From positions 23,020-87,019 of the forward strand of contig CAZIZE010000063.1 of NCBI GenBank assembly GCA_964543655.1: a stretch of DNA of 64,000 nucleotides. The letters are read 5' to 3'. The notes under the pieces are model-generated. The model saw only the letters and a program-made list of their open reading frames with translations, ran no database searches and was not told the origin of the DNA. Below are positions 7,551 through 41,873 of the stretch, in pieces (the stretch's first letter is position 1; every line of letters begins with the position of its first letter). The DNA comes from an uncultured bacterium (lineage in GTDB: Bacteria > DYJV01). The position numbers and the translations under genes are program-made.

Positions 7551-8073
7551 TTTTTTCAAAATTATTGGGGAGTAAGTATTTTTTGGCAAGGTCAATGTAA
7601 AGCTGCTTGGCATACAACCAGAACTCTTTATGCCTCTCCTGCACATTGCCAATGATTTCAAAAGGATTACCTGCAACTATTTTTTCATCAGGAATTACAG
7701 CTCTTCTATTAACAACTGCTCCTTCTGCAACAATACTCCATTTGCCAATTACAACATCAAACCCAATAATAGCACCAATGCCAATTACTGAAAAAGATTT
7801 TAGCTCATTGCAGTGAAGTATTGCTCCATGCCCAATTGTAACTTTTTCACCTATTTTAAGAATCCCATTTGGTCTAATGTGTAAATTTGCTCCCTCTTCA
7901 ACAGCTGTGCCATTCCCTATTTCTATGGTGCCATAATCACCTCTTAATATTGCTCCATGGCCAACATAGCAGTTGTCACCAATTATAACATCACCTATTA
8001 CAAGGGCTGAATCACTAACAAAAGAATTTTTCCCAATAACAGGGACTCTATTATTAAATTTGTAAATAGCCAT
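7543..8073 (-). CDS. Gamma-class carbonic anhydrase / hexapeptide-repeat (LbH) family protein
   Basis: Left-handed beta-helix hexapeptide repeats throughout, gamma-CA/PaaY-like N-terminus (AIYKFNNRVPVIGKNSFVSDSALVIGDVIIG). Confidence 0.8.
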   Translation of the reverse strand: MAIYKFNNRVPVIGKNSFVSDSALVIGDVIIGDNCYVGHGAILRGDYGTIEIGNGTAVEEGANLHIRPNGILKIGEKVTIGHGAILHCNELKSFSVIGIGAIIGFDVVIGKWSIVAEGAVVNRRAVIPDEKIVAGNPFEIIGNVQERHKEFWLYAKQLYIDLAKKYLLPNNFEKIK

Positions 8074-8075
8074 TT

Positions 8076-8109
8076 TATAGAAAAAGCACCTTAAAAAATT
8101 AAGGTGCTT
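8076..8109 (-). terminator. Rho-independent terminator downstream of the epimerase gene
   Basis: Hairpin AAGCACCTTAA-N6-TTAAGGTGCTT (8084-8109) followed on the minus strand by TTTTTCTAT. Confidence 0.5.
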
Positions 8110-8115
8110 AAATTT

Positions 8116-8532
8116 TTAGTGACCAGGTTGACAGATTTCAGTTAAAACCCCACCAGAAGCCTTTGGATGAATAAAAGCTACTTTTGTATTATGTGCACCA
8201 TCTCTTGGCTCATTGTCAATAAGTTTAACACCTTTCTCTTTTAAAACTTTAAGTGCTTCATTTATATCTTCCACTTCATAGCAAATATGATGAATGCCTT
8301 CTCTATTTTTTTCAAGGTATTTTGCTATTGGTGAATCAGGTGATGTGGCCTGAACAAGCTCAATATTAACTTCTCCTATTTTGAAAAAAGCAACTTTTAC
8401 TTTTTGAGATGCCACTTCATCAGTGCCATTAAACTGAAAACCCAATTGATCTTTATAAAACTTCATAGATTCTTCAAGGTTTTTTACAGCAATTCCAATA
8501 TGGTTAATTTTTTTAAACATGCTTACCTCCAT
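8116..8532 (-). CDS. Methylmalonyl-CoA epimerase (VOC/glyoxalase fold)
   Basis: HIGIAV...SPIAKYLEKNREGIHHICYEVEDI...GAHNTKVAFIHPK..GGVLTEI matches MCE; sits in a methylmalonyl-CoA gene cluster. Confidence 0.75.
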   Translation of the reverse strand: MEVSMFKKINHIGIAVKNLEESMKFYKDQLGFQFNGTDEVASQKVKVAFFKIGEVNIELVQATSPDSPIAKYLEKNREGIHHICYEVEDINEALKVLKEKGVKLIDNEPRDGAHNTKVAFIHPKASGGVLTEICQPGH

Positions 8533-8544
8533 TTTCTATGGTTT

Positions 8545-33272: not shown

Positions 33273-33656
33273 ATGGCACTTGATACTAAAATGAAAGTTT
33301 TGGTTGTTGATGATTTTGCAACCATGAGAAGAATAATTAAAAACATTTTGAGACAGATTGGTTTTACCAATATTATAGAAGCTGATGATGGTTCTACAGC
33401 TCTTCCTATTCTTGAAAAGGACAATATCGACCTTGTAATCACTGACTGGAATATGCCTAAAATGAGTGGATTAGAACTTCTCAAAGCCATTAGGAGTAAC
33501 CCTAATTTAAAAGATACTCCTGTGTTAATGGTAACAGCTGAAGCTTTAAAAGAGAATATAATTGAAGCTGTTAAAGCTGGAGTTAACAACTATGTTGTAA
33601 AGCCATTTACAGCACAAACTTTACAGGAAAAAATAGAGAAAATTTTTGGGAAATAA
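33273..33656 (+). CDS. CheY-like single-domain response regulator
   Basis: KVLVVDDFATMRRII...VITDWNMPKMSGLELLKAIR...PVLMVTAEA...VKPF matches all CheY conserved positions (DD, D57, T87, K109). Confidence 0.85.
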   Translation: MALDTKMKVLVVDDFATMRRIIKNILRQIGFTNIIEADDGSTALPILEKDNIDLVITDWNMPKMSGLELLKAIRSNPNLKDTPVLMVTAEALKENIIEAVKAGVNNYVVKPFTAQTLQEKIEKIFGK

Positions 33657-33659
33657 TAG

Positions 33660-34595
33660 ATGCCAAATTTATTGCAACTTTTAACAAATGAAGATGGAAA
33701 TGTTAGAAAAGCAGCCCTTCTTGGGCTTGCATATAAGGGAGAAACAACCTCATATAAAAAAATTCTTCCTCTACTTAAAGATAAATATTGGCAAATCAGG
33801 CTTGCTGCTGTTCAATGCCTTGAAATTTTAAAATGCAAGGAAGCTTTGCCATATCTGTTTAGCAGGTTAGGGATTGATGCACAATCTGGGAGAAAAGCAA
33901 TTCTTGATATATTAGCTGTTAGAAAGCCAAAACCTGAAGAAGAGGAAGATTCATCAAATGTTGAAAATTCTTTTAGAGTTAAAAAAGCAATTGCTCATGC
34001 AATTGCAACAATTGATGAAAATTACCTGATTAATCCATTAATAAATTCTTTAAGCTCTGACAATATTAATATGCAGCTTGCTGCAATTACAGGTCTTGGG
34101 AATATTGGTGCAGAATCAGCTGTACCTAAGATGTTAGAATTATTAGATACTGATAATGTATTATTGCAAAAAGCTATTATAGTTTCTCTTGGGAAAATTA
34201 AATCTTATATGGCTGTTGAACGTTTAATTGAGCTTACCGAGCATAGTGACGCTCAAATTAGGATGGAGGCTATTATTGCTCTCAATCATATTAAAGATTC
34301 AAGAGCAATAAAAATATTTATTGAGAAATTAAATGATAAAGATGTTAATGTAAGAAGGACTGCTGTTATTGCACTTGGTAATACCAAGAATCCAGAAATT
34401 TTGGATTTCCTTTTGGATAAGTTAAATGATAATAGTATTGTTGTAAGAAGAGCAGTTGTTTCTTCATTGGTAAATTACAGAGAAGAGAAGGTCCTGACCT
34501 CTCTTGTAAATCTTATGGAGCAGGAGACAGATGAAGACTTTATAAAAGAAATTTCCATGACATTTAATAAAGTTTTTGCAGGAATGTATCAGTGA
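33660..34595 (+). CDS. HEAT-repeat (PBS-lyase-type) protein
   Basis: Multiple approximately 30-aa repeats of the x-VR-xAA-xALG-xIG pattern. Confidence 0.7.
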   Translation: MPNLLQLLTNEDGNVRKAALLGLAYKGETTSYKKILPLLKDKYWQIRLAAVQCLEILKCKEALPYLFSRLGIDAQSGRKAILDILAVRKPKPEEEEDSSNVENSFRVKKAIAHAIATIDENYLINPLINSLSSDNINMQLAAITGLGNIGAESAVPKMLELLDTDNVLLQKAIIVSLGKIKSYMAVERLIELTEHSDAQIRMEAIIALNHIKDSRAIKIFIEKLNDKDVNVRRTAVIALGNTKNPEILDFLLDKLNDNSIVVRRAVVSSLVNYREEKVLTSLVNLMEQETDEDFIKEISMTFNKVFAGMYQ

Positions 34596-35398
34596 AAATA
34601 AAATGCCTAATAGCATCAACAAAAAGAAATTTTATAGATAAAATAACCAGGTTCATTAACAAAGAAAATCTTAGCCAGCTTGATATTGTAGATAAAATAG
34701 ATAGCAAAGAGATATTAAAAAAACATTATGATATTATTATAATTGATGATGATATTTGTGATGATTGGGAAAAGTTACATAAGGATATAAAAGAGACAAA
34801 TATCAACAATATTTTCATTTCAATTGTCAACAAAGTTAATATTGATAAACTTCGTCAAGCCTTTAGAGATGGTATCTATGATGTAATCCATCATAACATT
34901 AATGACAATGAAATATTGCACGTTTTTATGAAAGCTCTTGATACAGCTAAGATAATGAAATCGTGTGAAAAAGTTGTAAAATATTGTACACATAAAATTT
35001 TTTTTGAAATTCCAAGTGAAGTTAATTTAGTAAATGAGACTATTTTGCAGATATTAGAAACAGCAAAACTTGTTGGTTTTATTAAAAACACTGATTTAGA
35101 AAGTAACTTAAGACTTGTTTACACAGAAGCAATAGTTAATGCTATAGTTCATGGAAATAAATCCGATAAGAGTAAAAAGGTTATTGTTGTAGCAGAAATT
35201 ACTTATGAAAAGATGATAGTTTCCATTGAGGATATGGGAGAAGGTTTTGATTTTCAAAAGATAAATAACCCGCTTGAAGAGGATAATTTGCTCAAATCAT
35301 CAGGACGAGGCATATATTTAATAAAAGCAATTATGGATGAAGTAAAGTTTGAAAAAAATGGCAGTAAAATTATTTTAGTAAAGTATAGGGAGGGGTAA
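34592..35398 (+). CDS. Receiver-like domain fused to an HATPase_c (RsbW/SpoIIAB-type anti-sigma-factor-like serine kinase) domain
   Basis: The N-terminal half has REC-like topology but no clear phosphoacceptor context. The C-terminus (EAIVNAIVHGNKSDKSKKVIVV...IEDMGEGFD...SGRGIYLIKAIMDEV) matches the GHKL ATPase N and G boxes. Confidence 0.5.
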   Translation: MKIKCLIASTKRNFIDKITRFINKENLSQLDIVDKIDSKEILKKHYDIIIIDDDICDDWEKLHKDIKETNINNIFISIVNKVNIDKLRQAFRDGIYDVIHHNINDNEILHVFMKALDTAKIMKSCEKVVKYCTHKIFFEIPSEVNLVNETILQILETAKLVGFIKNTDLESNLRLVYTEAIVNAIVHGNKSDKSKKVIVVAEITYEKMIVSIEDMGEGFDFQKINNPLEEDNLLKSSGRGIYLIKAIMDEVKFEKNGSKIILVKYREG

Positions 35399-35418
35399 AT
35401 GGGATAAGGAGCATAGAT

Positions 35419-35712
35419 ATGCAGCAAATTCTCAACTACAATATAAAGGTTGAGAGAGTTTTCCACCTTTATCAGGAGCAAGGTGAGATAAATAGAAGTC
35501 TTTTATCAGAAGAGTTTGAAAAACTTCAAGAGCAAATCAAAGAAAAAGTTAACATGCCAGAAGAGACAGAAACTGATAATAAAGTTAAAGATAAAGAAGA
35601 ACATACTGCCTCTCCAAATAGCTATCAACAAAAGAAGAAAAAATCTAATGAGCCTAAAAAAGAGATAAAATATTTAAAAGAGCCTGATTCAAATATTGAT
35701 ATTAAAATTTAA
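35419..35712 (+). CDS. Hypothetical charged protein (97 aa)
   Basis: ORF with the Shine-Dalgarno-like sequence GGATAAGGAG upstream; low complexity; no recognisable domain. Confidence 0.35.
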   Translation: MQQILNYNIKVERVFHLYQEQGEINRSLLSEEFEKLQEQIKEKVNMPEETETDNKVKDKEEHTASPNSYQQKKKKSNEPKKEIKYLKEPDSNIDIKI

Positions 35713-35720
35713 AAATATCT

Positions 35721-35752
35721 ATTATACAAAACCAACCTTGAATTAAGAGATT
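35721..35752 (+). repeat. Direct repeat copy A (32 nt; ATTATACAAAACCAACCTTGAATTAAGAGATT)
   Basis: Matches copy B at 35984-36015 at 31 of 32 positions. Confidence 0.8.
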
Positions 35753-35788
35753 GTTAGCGCTGAAGCCTTTAAATAGTTGTCAGTTATT

Positions 35789-35923
35789 AGTTCAAAGTTC
35801 AAGGTTAAAAGTTAAATCAGGATTTGGGATTTAGGGATTAGGAATAAGTAGGGGCAATTTATGAATTGCCATTACGGGATATTATATAAGTTTACAGTTC
35901 AACGTTCATAGTTCAATGTTGAA
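35789..35923 (+). repeat. Two clusters of tandem heptamer repeats (unit AGTTCAA) and a GGGATT triplet flanking a perfect hairpin (GGCAATT-TATG-AATTGCC at 35853-35870)
   Basis: 35789-35816 AGTTCAA AGTTCAA GGTTAAA AGTTAAA; 35821-35846 GGGATTT AGGGATT AGGAATA; 35896-35923 AGTTCAA CGTTCAT AGTTCAA TGTTGAA. Confidence 0.7.
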
Positions 35924-35983
35924 AAATACTTTAATAACAGTAAGTTAAAAATATTGCAAATGTCATTTCAAGTAGAAAACTGT

Positions 35984-36015
35984 ATTATATAAAACCAACC
36001 TTGAATTAAGAGATT
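35984..36015 (+). repeat. Direct repeat copy B (32 nt), followed by the palindrome GGGCTTAAGCCC
   Basis: 31 of 32 identity to copy A; the following 25 nt differ between copies but both are GC-richer stem-like segments. Confidence 0.8.
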
Positions 36016-36168
36016 TTTCGGGCTTAAGCCCTCAAAATGACTGTTTTGATGGCAGAGAGGAGCACTGTGTGAAAAAATTACTGTTGGGTTTTACATTTGG
36101 TTTTGGATAAGAGCACCTATAAAAAACAAAGTTGGATTTTATACTTGGCTCTGTATTGGTTATAAAAA

Positions 36169-36240
36169 GCTGGTAAGGGGAATTGAACCCCTGACATGCT
36201 GATTACGAATCAGCTGCTCTACCATCTGAGCTATACCAGC
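36169..36240 (-). tRNA. tRNA-Thr (anticodon CGU)
   Basis: Reverse complement GCTGGTATAGCTCAGATGGTAGAGCAGCTGATTCGTAATCAGCATGTCAGGGGTTCAATTCCCCTTACCAGC folds as a cloverleaf (7-bp acceptor, GCTC/GAGC D stem, anticodon loop TTCGTAA, GGTTCAATT T-loop); CCA is not encoded. Confidence 0.85.
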
Positions 36241-36245
36241 AGATT

Positions 36246-38339
36246 TTAATTTCCCATTATTTCATTATAAGCTTTTATTAGCATTTCTCTGTAATATTCT
36301 ATATCATAAGAATCAGCAATTTGTCTAATTTTTACTCGCTCTTCTGAGACTTTGCTTCTATTATCTGTAATTACATATTCTACACTTTCGCCAGGTTGTA
36401 TATTGGTGAGAGAAGATGCAGCAATTATATTTAGATTTTTATTTTTATATGAAGATATAGGTTTTGAAACTCTTTTTTTTATTACCAGTTCATCAATATT
36501 GACCTCTCCATTTTGTAACAGTAGAAGATATTCTTTTAAAATTTTATTAGCGCGTTTATAATCTGGGAAAATTTTTAACAATTTTTGCTGAAAATTTTTT
36601 ATAAATATAGGGGTGTCCCTTTTTCTAAGCATCAGTCCTCTTACCTTTATTTTGCCATTATCAAATATGCCAAAAAATTTATTCATAACCTGTTTATTTT
36701 TATTCTCTGCTGAAGGAAGAAATTTAATGAATTGATAAATCCCTTCTATGTTGAGGATAAAACCAGTTTTAGTTGATATTTCTTTTGCAATATTTGTATA
36801 TTCTTCTCTTGTGGCATTTTTTTTATATATGTAGAGAGAGTCAGTTACTGCATAAATAATTTTAAACCCACTATTTTCAGCTATTTCTTTTGCTTTTAGT
36901 AGAATATCTCTGCCAGCAGCAGTTGTTGCTTCATGAGCTTCTACACATCCAAATTTTGCATTTTTATATCCTAAATAACCAAAGCAAGTAACGAGCATCC
37001 ATTTTATAGCATTCTGTCTATTTTTAAAAACTTCACTTGCTTTAAAATTTTTGTAAAGCTTTCTTTTTTTTAATAAAGGAGATATTGTCTCCGGGATAAT
37101 ACCTTGTTTTTTCTGACAAAAATAGTAATTAGTGCCAGGTATTTTAAGCTTTTCTGAAATATGCTGGCAACATTTGCAGTTTAATGTTTCAACTGATATG
37201 TTGAATTTTTCAATTATTGATGGATACATTGAAAAAAAGTCAACTTCTGCTACATTCTTGAAAATACCTACAGGTGGCAGGAAAAATAGACCACCTTTGT
37301 CAACTTTTATAAAATCTATTGCCCTTTTGAACCTTTCTGGAAAGGCTTTGTGTGAAGGAATAAGGTAATTATTTTTATAAGCTGTTTTTAGCTCCATTGT
37401 GGATATTGAGGAGCCAGGAGAAATTCTCGCAGCTTCTTGCAAAGGAAGTGAAGTGAGCCGTGCCACTTCTATTAACCCGTCAATTCCAGAATTTTTTACA
37501 AAAAAAGAATTATTAATGTCTATATGAATTCTACCTTTAAGATAGCTTATACTATCTTTAAATACTACTTTACCGTATGAAAAAAAGGAGTAAGATTTTT
37601 TTGATACAATTTTCAGATTATCTGTAGGTCTTGAGAGGGGTATATCTATGTTATATTTTTGGGCTCCAAACTTTATTAGGGGAATAATTACAGGATCTCC
37701 TGATAATGTAATAACCATATCAGGATCATATTCTTTAAAAATATTTCCAATGGAAATAAAAAATTCTTCTGTATCAAATTTTTCAAAAAAAAGTTTCTCT
37801 CCATTGGGCATGGTAATATCAATACCTGTCCATTGTGAATACTTTGGATTGCCCTTGCACACAGGGAATATGCCTAAAATGTTTAAAGGTGGTAATTTGT
37901 AATTTATATCCATGGGATTGTCTAAAGATTTAATAGAGATAATATGGTTGTTATTATGTGTTACTTCAACTTTTGCAAATGGAAAAAGATTGTGCTCAAA
38001 GTAAAATTGCAACAGAGGTGAAAGGTCAGAGTTGTAGACTCCTATATTTTCCTGGTTAAGAAGATAAGCTTTTACATTCCAGAAATTTTTAATATCCATT
38101 TTTATACCATAAACTTTTACCTTTTTTCCTGTGTAAATTTCTCCCATTTCTGTAGAGTAAAATGAAATTTTAAAAAATTTAGATAAATTTTTAATAAATT
38201 TATATGATGATTTAACATAAAGTGTAGGAGTGTAATTAAAGTATAGAAAAGATTTGCTTGCTTCATTATTAACTAAACATAGGAGCAATTTATTGTTATC
38301 AATAAAAGTATCAAGGAGAAAAAGTTCATTCTTTTTCAT
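36246..38339 (-). CDS. Family B DNA polymerase (Pol II / archaeal PolB-like) lacking the 3'-5' exonuclease catalytic motifs
   Basis: Motif A DFFSMYPSII, motif B KWMLVTCFGYLGY, motif C IYAVTDSLYI (YxDTDS), KxY-region NKFFGIFDNGKIKVRGL, plus PolB-typical GRIHIDI and GIIPETISPLLKKRKLYK. Exo I (DxE) and Exo II (NxxxFDxxY) positions are replaced (LLDTF; ITLSGDPVIIPLI). Confidence 0.8.
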   Translation of the reverse strand: MKKNELFLLDTFIDNNKLLLCLVNNEASKSFLYFNYTPTLYVKSSYKFIKNLSKFFKISFYSTEMGEIYTGKKVKVYGIKMDIKNFWNVKAYLLNQENIGVYNSDLSPLLQFYFEHNLFPFAKVEVTHNNNHIISIKSLDNPMDINYKLPPLNILGIFPVCKGNPKYSQWTGIDITMPNGEKLFFEKFDTEEFFISIGNIFKEYDPDMVITLSGDPVIIPLIKFGAQKYNIDIPLSRPTDNLKIVSKKSYSFFSYGKVVFKDSISYLKGRIHIDINNSFFVKNSGIDGLIEVARLTSLPLQEAARISPGSSISTMELKTAYKNNYLIPSHKAFPERFKRAIDFIKVDKGGLFFLPPVGIFKNVAEVDFFSMYPSIIEKFNISVETLNCKCCQHISEKLKIPGTNYYFCQKKQGIIPETISPLLKKRKLYKNFKASEVFKNRQNAIKWMLVTCFGYLGYKNAKFGCVEAHEATTAAGRDILLKAKEIAENSGFKIIYAVTDSLYIYKKNATREEYTNIAKEISTKTGFILNIEGIYQFIKFLPSAENKNKQVMNKFFGIFDNGKIKVRGLMLRKRDTPIFIKNFQQKLLKIFPDYKRANKILKEYLLLLQNGEVNIDELVIKKRVSKPISSYKNKNLNIIAASSLTNIQPGESVEYVITDNRSKVSEERVKIRQIADSYDIEYYREMLIKAYNEIMGN

Positions 38340-38565
38340 GTAGCGTTCTGATTTCTTTTAAAAGCTCTATGCACATTGATAACAATATACCTTCCATTGG
38401 CAGGGGGAAAGAGGAATAAGCGCATGCTTGAATATGTTTTCTTGCTTTTTCCCATAATTCATCAAATATCTCTTGATCCTCTTTTCGAAGTGCGCGTCTA
38501 AAATCTTTGAGATTGCTTTTTTCTCTGTTTAATACGTATGTAAAAGGTGCAACTGTCCTGCCCAT
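38326..38565 (-). CDS. Hypothetical small protein (79 aa) within the lexA-polB operon
   Basis: ORF overlapping both neighbours (14 nt with polB, 37 nt with the RecA-fold gene); no recognisable domain. Confidence 0.35.
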   Translation of the reverse strand: MGRTVAPFTYVLNREKSNLKDFRRALRKEDQEIFDELWEKARKHIQACAYSSFPLPMEGILLSMCIELLKEIRTLHEKE

Positions 38566-39068
38566 AGCTTATTAACCCCTTTTTTTAGATGAAGTGGCTT
38601 TACAATAGATGTATCTTCTATAAATACTTTGCTCTTCTTTTCCACTATTTTATAGTATCCTCTTCTATCAAATCTATTTAAAGTTATAATAGCAGGTGAT
38701 ATGTGAGATAGATAAGATAGAGATTTTCTAAAAATTTTCATTGCATGTATATGAGAAATATTGTCATCATCAAGCAGGGTAGTAAAACCCAGTAGTATAA
38801 ATAGAAAATTTTTACCTGTTTTTTTGAAAAAGAGAATTTTCTCTATAAGTTTTAACATTTGAAATGGTGTGAAAGCTCGGGCAATAAATATATTTTCAAG
38901 AATGGTGTATGGTGTAATTTTCATTGCTACACAGATATTTGATATAAGGTATGGGTCAAATTTGTTTGCAGCATCAACAACAATGATATTGGAATTATCT
39001 CTGAAAATAGCCCTGATATAGTACCAGATAAATTTGTGAATCCCTGAATTACCAGCAACTGCAATCAT
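38529..39068 (-). CDS. RecA-fold protein with a degenerate Walker A (ImuA/SulA-like)
   Basis: IAVAGNSGIHKF (degenerate P-loop) then IIVVDAANKFDPYLISNICVAMKI, which aligns to RecA [21 protein letters not shown]. A later hydrophobic strand ends in DDD (FLFILLGFTTLLDDD), like RecA VIVVDSV. 179 aa, similar in size to SulA or ImuA. Confidence 0.5.
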   Translation of the reverse strand: MIAVAGNSGIHKFIWYYIRAIFRDNSNIIVVDAANKFDPYLISNICVAMKITPYTILENIFIARAFTPFQMLKLIEKILFFKKTGKNFLFILLGFTTLLDDDNISHIHAMKIFRKSLSYLSHISPAIITLNRFDRRGYYKIVEKKSKVFIEDTSIVKPLHLKKGVNKLWAGQLHLLHTY

Positions 39069-39682
39069 GATATTTTCCTTATTATCCCAACAACTTTACC
39101 TATTATTTTAACTTCATCAGGATTGATATTGTTAAGGATAATATCTTCATATTTATCATTTTCAGGATGAAGAATGATAAGGTTGTCCTTTTTTATAAAT
39201 CTCTTTAAAGTAATTTCATTGTAAATAGATGCAACAACAATGTCGTTATGCTCAACATTAGAATCAGTTGATACCACAGCAATATCTCCATCTTCAATAA
39301 GAGCATTTATCATTGAATCACCAATAACTTTAAACATAAAAATATTAGAAAATGGAAAAATTTTAGTATCAACAATGTAGTAATCTTCTGCAACTTCGTT
39401 AATATCAATTGGTGAACCAGCAGCTACATAAGATATAAGAGGAGCTTTTTTTATATTACTGGCTGGCTCTTCAATAGAAAGAGATATACCTCTGGAGATT
39501 TTTTTCTCTTTTTTTAAATATCCCTTTTTTTCTAAAATAGTAACATATTTGAAAGCATTTTTAGGTGCAATGCGAAAATGTTCAGCTATCTCTCTAATGG
39601 TAGGGGGCAGCCCCCTGTTATGTAAAAAATCTTTAATAAATAGATAGACTTCTTTTTCTTTTAATGTAATATTGGGTAACAT
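39065..39682 (-). CDS. lexA: LexA repressor
   Basis: N-terminal wHTH (LKEKEVYLFIKDFLHNRGLPPTIREIAEHFRIAPKNAFKYVTILEKKGYL), Ala-Gly cleavage site VAAGSP, catalytic Ser in VIGDSM and Lys in ITLKRF. Confidence 0.9.
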   Translation of the reverse strand: MLPNITLKEKEVYLFIKDFLHNRGLPPTIREIAEHFRIAPKNAFKYVTILEKKGYLKKEKKISRGISLSIEEPASNIKKAPLISYVAAGSPIDINEVAEDYYIVDTKIFPFSNIFMFKVIGDSMINALIEDGDIAVVSTDSNVEHNDIVVASIYNEITLKRFIKKDNLIILHPENDKYEDIILNNINPDEVKIIGKVVGIIRKIS

Positions 39683-39717
39683 ATGTTACCTATAGTTGAA
39701 AAAAATATTTTTGTCAA
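39675..39717 (-). promoter_or_regulatory. Candidate lexA promoter/operator: imperfect 22-bp inverted repeat TTGACAAAAAT|ATTTTTTTCAA containing a consensus -35 TTGACA, plus a perfect 16-bp palindrome GGTAACATATGTTACC spanning the lexA start codon
   Basis: In lexA sense: TTGACA-N17-TATAGG then AGGTAACAT-ATG. The 22-bp inverted repeat at 39696-39717 matches at 10 of 11 positions per arm. Confidence 0.4.
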
Positions 39718-41624: not shown

Positions 41625-41873
41625 ACAAAACCAAATTAAAGTAATATATAACGTTTTTTAAAAGGCTTTATATTTGCCAATAATATATTTTTCCACTTAA
41701 AATAATATCTATAATATTTTAAAAGCAAGGTTAGTTTTGTATTAAAATAAATTAATAAAAACTTAACCTACATACAATTGATTTTTTAATTTTTTAATGC
41801 TATATATAAGCTATTCTTGACTTTCAATAAATTATTTGTTATTTGTAATTAAAATTTTGAATATAGGTTCAGA

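Follow-up and report, generated by a model that had tools for sequence, protein, structure and literature searches.

A repeat-rich spacer beside a tRNA-Thr gene of an uncultured hydrothermal-vent bacterium is probably a mosaic of MITE-like element ends and heptamer satellites

Small intergenic elements comparable to MITEs (miniature inverted-repeat transposable elements) are represented in Neisseria by the Correia/NEMIS elements, and mosaics of short motifs are exemplified by the bacterial interspersed mosaic elements (BIMEs) of enterobacteria, which combine repetitive extragenic palindromes (REPs) with other motifs, and by the BOX elements of Streptococcus pneumoniae. For BIMEs and BOX elements, we refer to a general review (PMC3184786). 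The 'BrickBuilt' element of Porphyromonas gingivalis is a MITE that contains an internal minisatellite and has bidirectional promoter activity (PMC4596501). According to the summary of Mrazek 2007 given in PMC4679880, heptamers are the commonest class of bacterial long simple-sequence repeats and are sporadically distributed, and intergenic arrays of one such heptamer, TAACTGA, occur in Beggiatoaceae, Cyanobacteria, and Bacteroidetes (PMC4679880). The G-rich intergenic heptamers GGGNATC of Xanthomonas and GGGGA(C/T)T of Nostoc form G-quadruplexes and cluster near stop codons (PMC4692102). Here, we describe a spacer that combines these known kinds of repeat in a lineage from which they have not so far been reported. 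It occupies positions 35713-36167 (about 455-456 nt) of a 64,000-nt stretch of contig CAZIZE010000063.1 (assembly GCA_964543655.1) from an uncultured bacterium; this whole stretch is termed the window, and its numbering is used throughout. The spacer extends from the stop codon of a 97-aa open reading frame (ORF) to the 3' end of a tRNA-Thr(CGT) gene. Because the tRNA gene is on the minus strand (36168-36240), the spacer is on its 3' side and between convergent genes, in agreement with an earlier, sequence-only reading that had placed the region downstream of tRNA-Thr.

The spacer is organized repeat DNA and not a random AT-rich spacer, as that reading had also proposed, and all the elements that it listed are in place and far beyond chance expectation. 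The explanation that we consider probable, if well short of certain, is that it is a mosaic of MITE-like element ends and heptamer satellites of the short tandemly repeated repetitive (STRR) type, composed of lineage-specific, dispersed, non-coding modules. It was probably not built as a locus-specific device and is probably under weak constraint. The occurrence of its modules in unrelated spacers of relatives, together with the fastest strain divergence of the locus, argues for dispersed or selfish and slippage-generated repeats and against a device specific to this locus. In this explanation, a conserved 32-mer would be the outer (left) terminal repeat of a non-coding element family with terminal inverted repeats (TIRs). 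The second copy of the 32-mer (copy B), together with inverted motifs at 36083-36148, would form one roughly complete unit of about 115-165 nt, and the first copy (copy A) would be a solo left end. The AGTTCAA/GGTTCAA and GGATTT(A/G) arrays between or beside these ends would belong to the STRR or long-simple-sequence-repeat kind, and we infer that replication slippage lengthened them and that they were afterwards dispersed by the mosaic elements or together with them. The patchwork would have accumulated in a convergent-gene spacer beside a tRNA gene, where the gene order of the lineage rearranged. Transposition and slippage would accordingly be the presumed generating mechanisms, and any function would be incidental, such as hairpins that assist in terminating convergent transcripts, or TATTAT boxes of the -10 type at element ends. 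The features concerned, from left to right, are as follows.

35419-35712, plus strand: 97-aa ORF, the left border of the spacer, lysine-rich and without a Pfam match.
35710-35773, plus strand: direct repeat copy A, with the core 35720-35752 = TATTATACAAAACCAACCTTGAATTAAGAGATT; a putative solo left end that resembles a TIR, with a degenerate hairpin after it.
35775-35817, plus strand: heptamer array 1, AGTTGTC AGTTATT AGTTCAA AGTTCAA GGTTAAA AGTTAAA, with the core called by Tandem Repeats Finder (TRF) at 35789-35816.
35820-35842, plus strand: G-rich heptamer array, GGATTT-GGGATTTA-GGGATTA-GG.
35848-35875, no strand assigned: hairpin with a 7-bp stem, GGCAATT/AATTGCC, and a 4-nt loop (stem-loop 35853-35870); the sole terminator-like site flagged, on the minus strand.
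35880-35889, plus strand: third TATTATATAA box, a partial copy of the outer end of the repeat.
35888-35924, plus strand: heptamer array 2, AAGTTTA CAGTTCA ACGTTCA TAGTTCA ATGTTGA, about five degenerate units.
35973-36036, plus strand: direct repeat copy B, with the core 35983-36015, carrying the palindrome GGGCTTAAGCCC.
36083-36095, 36097-36113, and 36129-36146, minus strand: inverted partial copies of the AAAACCAAC outer end of the repeat.
36168-36240, minus strand: tRNA-Thr, anticodon CGT, the right border of the spacer; 72.2 bits, beginning 5 nt past the polB stop codon.
41728-41769, no strand assigned: diverged end motif outside the spacer, a head-to-head palindrome AGGTTAGTTTTGTATTAA-N6-TTAATAAAAACTTAACCT with 18-nt arms that are 83% complementary.

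It is clear from our results that the repeats are real. The 32-nt direct repeat, reported previously as occurring twice, 263 nt apart and with 31 of 32 positions identical, was recovered as the cores 35720-35752 and 35983-36015. Around these, a longer stretch of 64 nt (35710-35773 and 35973-36036) is repeated at 83% identity and with the same 263-nt spacing. The local alignment of copies A and B spans 54 nt at 87% (E = 8.5e-15), and a 25-mer of the repeat found no match in 100 shuffles of the window. The perfect palindrome claimed for copy B is present (GGGCTTAAGCCC, 36020-36031), inside a 26-nt imperfect palindrome at 36013-36038. The sequence-only reading had overlooked the third TATTATATAA box, a motif with four occurrences in the window, three of them in the spacer and all three of these on the plus strand. 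It had likewise overlooked the inverted partial copies of the AAAACCAAC outer end and the near match between the heptamer unit (A/G)GTTCAA(G) and a CCTTGAA(T) stretch of the 32-mer when the latter is read in reverse complement. The inverted copies align over 17 nt at 88%, the best inverted match has p = 0.016, and 36097-36113 is complementary at 16 of 17 positions to copy A in two other strains (contigs L001 and L013; fetched sequences are cited by L numbers). The same region contains an 18-nt direct repeat (36083-36100 and 36131-36148, 15/18, p = 0.004). There are three right-end candidates for the unit starting at copy B within 36083-36148, each matching at 13-15 of 17 positions, and none for copy A. 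These motifs are the candidate right end(s) of a MITE-like unit of about 115-165 nt that would start at copy B. Two simpler descriptions were rejected: a tandem duplication of a 263-nt unit, as only 64 nt are common to both units, and an approximately 48-nt tandem duplication at 36055-36150, which reduced to the 18-nt repeat at 15/18. The palindrome at 41728-41769, whose spacer has bipA/typA on one side and an M23 peptidase gene on the other, could be an operator or a head-to-head pair of element ends.

Between the two copies of the direct repeat, TRF bore out the two heptamer blocks with the unit AGTTCAA; the units are degenerate (66-85% match), and block 2 spans 35888-35924. Array 2 is 78-79% identical to array 1. 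Over 35775-35930, the self-match is 0.54 at lag 7, 0.47 at lag 14, and 0.39 at lag 21; this lag-7 periodicity is the strongest in the window and was reached by none of 5000 shuffles. Within the window, AGTTCAA and GGATTT arrays are found in this spacer only. The GGGATT x3 run described between the blocks corresponds to the G-rich run GGATTTGGGATTTAGGGATTAGG at 35820-35842, and the G-tracts within 35820-35852 are GG, GGG, GGG, GG, and GGGG, with GGATTTGGGATTTAGGGATTAGGAATAAGTAGGGG as a candidate G-quadruplex sequence. The perfect 7-bp hairpin in the middle of the region, GGCAATT-TATG-AATTGCC, was found by the repeat finder at 35853-35870 as claimed, and a single TAACTGA unit was read by eye on the minus strand at about 35781-35787.

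Modules of the spacer are common to unrelated loci in relatives, as found by a sensitive comparison with all fetched relative loci. The core TATTATAYAAAACCAACCTTGAA matches the left TIR of an approximately 170-nt element at two other loci of a related species: a scan with up to four mismatches placed TATACAAAACCAACCTTGAA-like sites at L016 3414-3433 (TATACAAAATCAACCTTAAA) and L009 2985-2966 (AATACAAAATCTACTTTGAA), both resembling the first 20 nt of the 32-mer. An approximately 170-nt block begins at each of these sites. The two blocks are 83% identical and align end to end, and each ends in an inverted copy of the motif (15/20 and 16/20 in an alignment read by eye; the repeat finder did not return these copies). 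They contain three GC hairpins and have unrelated gene contexts, at a distance of 120-150 nt downstream of tRNA-Asn and of tRNA-Leu. L009 belongs to the metagenome-assembled genome (MAG) GCA_054009555.1, and L016 and L010 belong to metagenome ERZ23491132; L009 and L016 are probably from one species, because the two assemblies encode an identical RsbW-like protein (on L009 and L010). As read from the alignment, a homologous block framed by inverted ends is present at different loci, which is characteristic of a small mobile element. A stronger version of this idea is that the TATTATAYAAAACCAACCTTGAA ends and subterminal (A/G)GTTCAA heptads could together be the recognition apparatus of an undescribed small mobile-element family that would land preferentially in tRNA flanks of a deep-branching hydrothermal-vent lineage and drive the gene-order breaks at this spot, with the heptad arrays serving as multiple transposase- or recombinase-binding sites; we regard this as quite doubtful.

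Arrays of the AGTTCAA family were found in relatives at L009 10790-10821, L016 3271-3298 and 9550-9573, and L023 8195-8226, and the reverse complement of array 2 matches L009 7170-7187, downstream of the orthologous 97-aa ORF. The G-rich array has an identical 16-mer in L016 (3314-3329) and family members at L009 11115-11146, L019 344-389 and 14933-14952, and L023 8292-8309. Relatives have the two families, often together, in five or more additional spacers, which include L009 10790-11146, L016 3271-3345 (directly after tRNA-Leu), L019 344-389 and 14933-14952, and L023 8195-8309, where they are accompanied by other shared modules (TTCTCACRCAAAG, CTTCGACAAGCTCAGCAACC) and other heptamer families. 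No heptamer arrays were found in the compared loci of relatives L005, L017, and L022. In L023, a related MAG, the spacer upstream of pdxJ (8056-8534) contains a composite unit of approximately 185 nt in tandem duplicate, consisting of a hairpin, AAATCC-type heptamers, a AAATTCGAATATCGAAAT module, and GTTCAAG heptamers.

In its exact form, the core of the repeat was encountered at this locus only, consistent with the earlier claim that it is not a generic high-copy REP. An exact 20-mer scan of GTDB species representatives, a set from which the source species is seemingly absent, gave a single chance match (a Planktophila MAG), and in Joint Genome Institute (JGI) metagenomes the same scan recovered only this locus, from a third strain, and two chance matches in an organism of 39% G+C. 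The 32-mer thus does not occur hundreds of times in the GTDB representatives and JGI metagenomes, the complete source genome lying outside the scan. Comparison of the spacer with plasmid and phage collections by blastn gave no match. A REP or BIME identity was rejected, with two core copies only and palindromes that are short and AT-flanked.

Strain variation provides the second line of evidence. Three strains are represented at this locus, counting the window, by the European Nucleotide Archive (ENA) contig L001 and the JGI contigs L013 and L014. Over 20.8 kb, L001 differs from the window by 36 substitutions and no indels, and the spacer, which is 2% of the compared sequence, holds 8 of these 36 single-nucleotide polymorphisms (SNPs). 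This amounts to 8 SNPs in 455 nt of spacer, compared with 0 in the remaining 923 nt of intergenic DNA (Fisher p = 1.4e-4) and 28 in the 19,429 nt of coding DNA (p = 1.2e-6). Copy A has three independent strain-variable sites (35727, 35740, and 35758) and copy B has none; in the JGI strain (L014), the core of copy A is identical to that of copy B at 33 of 33 positions. In the hairpin at 35853-35870, the sole strain change is at 35860 in the loop, and the stem is retained. Of all the DNA at the locus, the spacer shows the least constraint overall, which argues against a finely tuned binding array. The JGI assembly is split inside the spacer, L014 ending at window position 35986 and L013 starting at 35853, as expected where a real repeat disrupts the assembler. 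L013 also shows one mismatch at its position 3 (window 35855), 3 nt from the contig start; since the overlapping contig L014 lacks it, this is probably a contig-end assembly error and no real variant.

The strong 7-nt periodicity and the elevated strain divergence bear in opposite directions on a functional protein-binding array, in which the heptads would serve as cooperative binding sites for a small repressor or partition-type protein, or the forward and reverse AAAACCAAC motifs would be transposase or recombinase sites on which a nucleoprotein complex is organized close to the tRNA gene. There is a precedent for the former in the omega repressor, which binds 7-bp heptad arrays on plasmid pSM19035. 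In addition to the periodicity, such an array would fit the convergent layout of the motifs (two or three forward sites, then three reverse), the recurrence of the end motif as an operator-like palindrome with 18-nt arms at 41728-41769, and the position of three of the four good motif occurrences, which adjoin the only tRNA gene of their locus. However, the units match at only 66-85% and vary between strains, the SNP density of the spacer is the highest in the locus, and no candidate binding-protein, rep, par, or integrase gene lies within 10 kb. The arrays also occur in unrelated spacers of relatives that have no neighbor gene in common, and the local SOS box, GTAAC-N4-GTTAC, is different. 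We consider a binding array unlikely. The specific forms suggested by the sequence-only reading are not supported: an iteron or response-regulator array is at odds with units that are 7 nt long, degenerate, and out of helical phase and with the lack of a rep gene or regulator target nearby, and for a recombinase arm-site array, there is no integrase within 10 kb on either side and the repeats contain no tRNA sequence. A replication origin with iterons was rejected on the 7-nt units, the 263-nt distance between the long repeats, and the absence of a rep or dnaA neighbor, a GC-skew switch, or plasmid similarity. An SOS-box array was considered, as the heptads contain GTTC and the lexA operon ends at the tRNA gene, and was rejected: the conserved palindrome upstream of lexA is GTAAC-N4-GTTAC and occurs once in the window.

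Another suggestion was that the spacer holds a pair of duplicated small-RNA genes. In a fuller form, the repeats would be two paralogous small-RNA genes or promoter modules, with TATTAT as the -10 box, a start just upstream of AAAACCAACC on the plus strand, and the stem as a structural or terminator element; alternatively, TATAAT on the minus strand would drive leftward transcripts. Sigma-70-like matches are indeed present on the plus strand at both copies (TTGATA-18-TATTAT at 35696-35725 and ATGTCA-17-TATTAT at 35960-35988), and TATAAT can be read directly on the minus strand of both; promoter-like sites in the spacer are not above expectation (8 compared with 5.5 +/- 2.3 by shuffle). Folding of the whole spacer against shuffles gave z = -3.0 on the minus strand and z = -1.4 on the plus strand, and sub-segments ranged from -2.1 to -3.2 on the minus strand (-3.2 for 35845-35990) and from -0.5 to -1.9, which is ordinary, on the plus strand. 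The low minus-strand energies arise largely because the inverted repeats pair with each other. The absence of SNPs from copy B and its surroundings would suit an RNA gene, but substitutions accumulate in copy A and the spacer is absent from relatives. Rfam returned tRNA only over the whole window at the gathering threshold and noise only for the spacer at E <= 10, so that the check for a small-RNA family gave no spacer match even at E = 10, and no U-tract terminator lies 3' of either copy. Small-RNA genes or promoter modules are, on balance, a rather unlikely account of the spacer. The claim that the region has no ORF was borne out for lengths of at least 30 aa. Four mechanical ORFs of 21-27 aa overlap the spacer; they are without ribosome-binding context, and a leader peptide or small ORF was rejected.

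The spacer is also a synteny breakpoint without an ortholog in relatives. The source organism has a G+C content of approximately 30%. Its GuaA is at most 71-72% identical to that of named Hydrogenothermaceae and 69% identical to that of Deferribacter, compared with 74-89% for vent MAGs, and several relatives are hydrothermal-vent metagenome sequences. Judged from GuaA, the host is a hydrothermal-vent lineage whose nearest named relatives are Hydrogenothermaceae and Deferribacter. Relatives with RsbW-like proteins of 81% and 52% identity retain the order bioA-cheY-HEAT-rsbW-like-97aa, and this order breaks right after the 97-aa ORF, where the next gene is fliW, yhdP, or epimerase-like, differing per genome. 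The spacer is accordingly not conserved in the relatives compared at this position, where a check for an insertion or excision polymorphism had been suggested. On two contigs, L003 (from 1965 onward) and L004 (from 1694 onward), an identical RsbW-like protein and 96-aa ORF are followed by full divergence right after the stop codon, with fliW-csrA-flagellin on one contig and an epimerase-like ORF on the other. This points to either a rearrangement between strains or a chimeric assembly, with the breakpoint where it also lies in the window.

A breakpoint beside a tRNA gene could also be the scar of site-specific recombination at a tRNA-linked hot spot, with the 64-nt repeats as attL/attR-like remnants of a lost integrative element. 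The spacer adjoins the tRNA gene, the synteny break is exactly here with right-hand neighbors that differ in every relative, and the context of the lexA...polB cassette beyond the tRNA gene differs per genome. Against such a scar, the repeats do not overlap the tRNA 3' end, just 199 nt separate them, and there are no integrase, phage, or integrative and conjugative element genes within 10 kb; moreover, the core is common to a TIR-bounded element at other loci, which fits transposition better than att duplication. We judge the scar to be quite improbable. In a separate consideration, att or arm-type sites were rejected because the repeats end at least 131 nt from the tRNA gene and have no sequence in common with it, with no integrase within 10 kb.

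On the right side of the spacer, the window contains a four-gene cassette on the minus strand (36246-39689), with the following members.

36246-38339, minus strand: polB, family-B DNA polymerase.
38326-38565, minus strand: DUF8156 protein, 79 aa.
38529-39068, minus strand: 179-aa RecA/Rad51-like protein, with a weak Pfam match to Rad51.
39065-39682, minus strand: lexA.

This cassette is kept in three relatives (L016-L018), in a different context in each and in none of the three with a tRNA gene after polB. All four genomes share a perfect palindrome, GGTAACATATGTTACC, that overlaps the start codon of lexA. By analogy with imuA-imuB-dnaE2, the cassette looks like an SOS-controlled PolB mutagenesis or repair module. 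On the left side, the operon ending with the 97-aa ORF (33273-35712) encodes a CheY-like receiver of 127 aa, a HEAT-repeat protein of 311 aa, a protein of 268 aa that has an RsbW-type HATPase_c_2 domain at its C-terminus, and the 97-aa protein, and this order is conserved in relatives down to 52% identity. Further upstream, at about 26.9-28.7 kb of the window (L001 2338-4100), a DpnII-family restriction endonuclease gene and an N6/N4 DNA methyltransferase gene form a type II restriction-modification pair between a ferredoxin-like gene and pdxJ; a 70% relative (L005) is without this pair at the corresponding position.

How closely the spacer resembles the described systems depends on which of its modules is compared. 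Like BrickBuilt and the Correia/NEMIS elements, it is small, non-coding, and strictly intergenic, with putative short inverted ends and tandem repeats between a 'leader' and a 'tail', promoter-like boxes at the ends, apparently related copies at several loci, and a narrow host range. It differs in the length of the internal units (7 nt here, 23 nt in BrickBuilt), in its very low apparent copy number, and in the lack of a target-site duplication or cognate transposase in the fetched loci. The heptamers agree with STRR and TAACTGA repeats (PMC4679880) in being head-to-tail arrays of 2-6 units that are intergenic, recur at many loci of a lineage, and are sporadically distributed; unlike those repeats, the units here are (A/G)GTTCAA and GGATTT(A/G), the host is from hydrothermal vents, and the arrays lie at gene 3' ends instead of directly upstream of start codons and are embedded in a mosaic. 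The run GGATTTGGGATTTAGGGATTAGG...GGGG parallels GGGNATC and GGGGA(C/T)T (PMC4692102) as a non-coding G-tract heptamer array that is near a stop codon and recurs in the lineage, but it has about three units, with GG/GGG and not GGG/GGGG tracts, in a 30% G+C genome, and its G-quadruplex is putative. Comparable to BIMEs and BOX elements are the modular mosaic of several short repeat types in variable module numbers, the position between convergent or co-directional genes, and hairpins able to affect termination or mRNA stability; in contrast to them, there is no module sequence in common with REP or BOX, the window copy is without GC-rich GTAG/CGTC-tagged palindromes, and no REP-associated tyrosine transposase (RAYT) was seen.

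Membership among the MITEs is, as judged from these sequences, not fully established, the inverted ends and multi-copy status having been found only in part. The units are of a suitable size (about 115-170 nt) and non-coding, with no ORF of at least 30 aa; multiple copies amount to two loci in what is probably one related species and, in the source organism, one locus plus the diverged motif at 41.7 kb. The heptamers fit simple-sequence repeats in being tandem 7-nt units beyond chance that recur at intergenic loci in L009, L016, L019, and L023. Several findings weigh against a mosaic of element ends and satellites. The apparent copy number is low, with the exact 20-mer core at this locus only among the GTDB representatives and JGI metagenomes, and just one further, diverged end motif (41728-41769) lies within 64 kb. 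No consistent target-site duplication, TA or other, was seen in the flanks inspected in the window and around the L009 and L016 elements, and no transposase gene with matching ends was seen in the fetched loci. The copies in the window have only an approximately 25-nt end in common with the well-bounded element of the relatives, the 20-nt ends of which come from reading the alignment and not from the repeat finder, and the right end of the copy B unit is ambiguous, with three candidates of 13-15/17 at best. A 245-nt stretch that includes copy B (35861-36105) is free of SNPs and could reflect constraint. Finally, the three strains show substitutions only, with no indels or differences in heptamer unit number, which implies that slippage is not active now.

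A spacer as eye-catching and seemingly organized as this one is explicable by lineage-wide selfish and slippage-generated repeats, and this explanation guards against over-reading such DNA as a regulatory device. With this spacer, the reported hosts of heptamer-satellite and MITE-like mosaics, until now mostly cyanobacteria, Beggiatoaceae, xanthomonads, and some few Bacteroidetes, come to include a vent lineage. Repeats of this kind disrupt metagenome assembly, as happened here with one JGI sample, and mark rearrangement points, and cataloguing them therefore helps both the finishing of MAGs and studies of the evolution of synteny.

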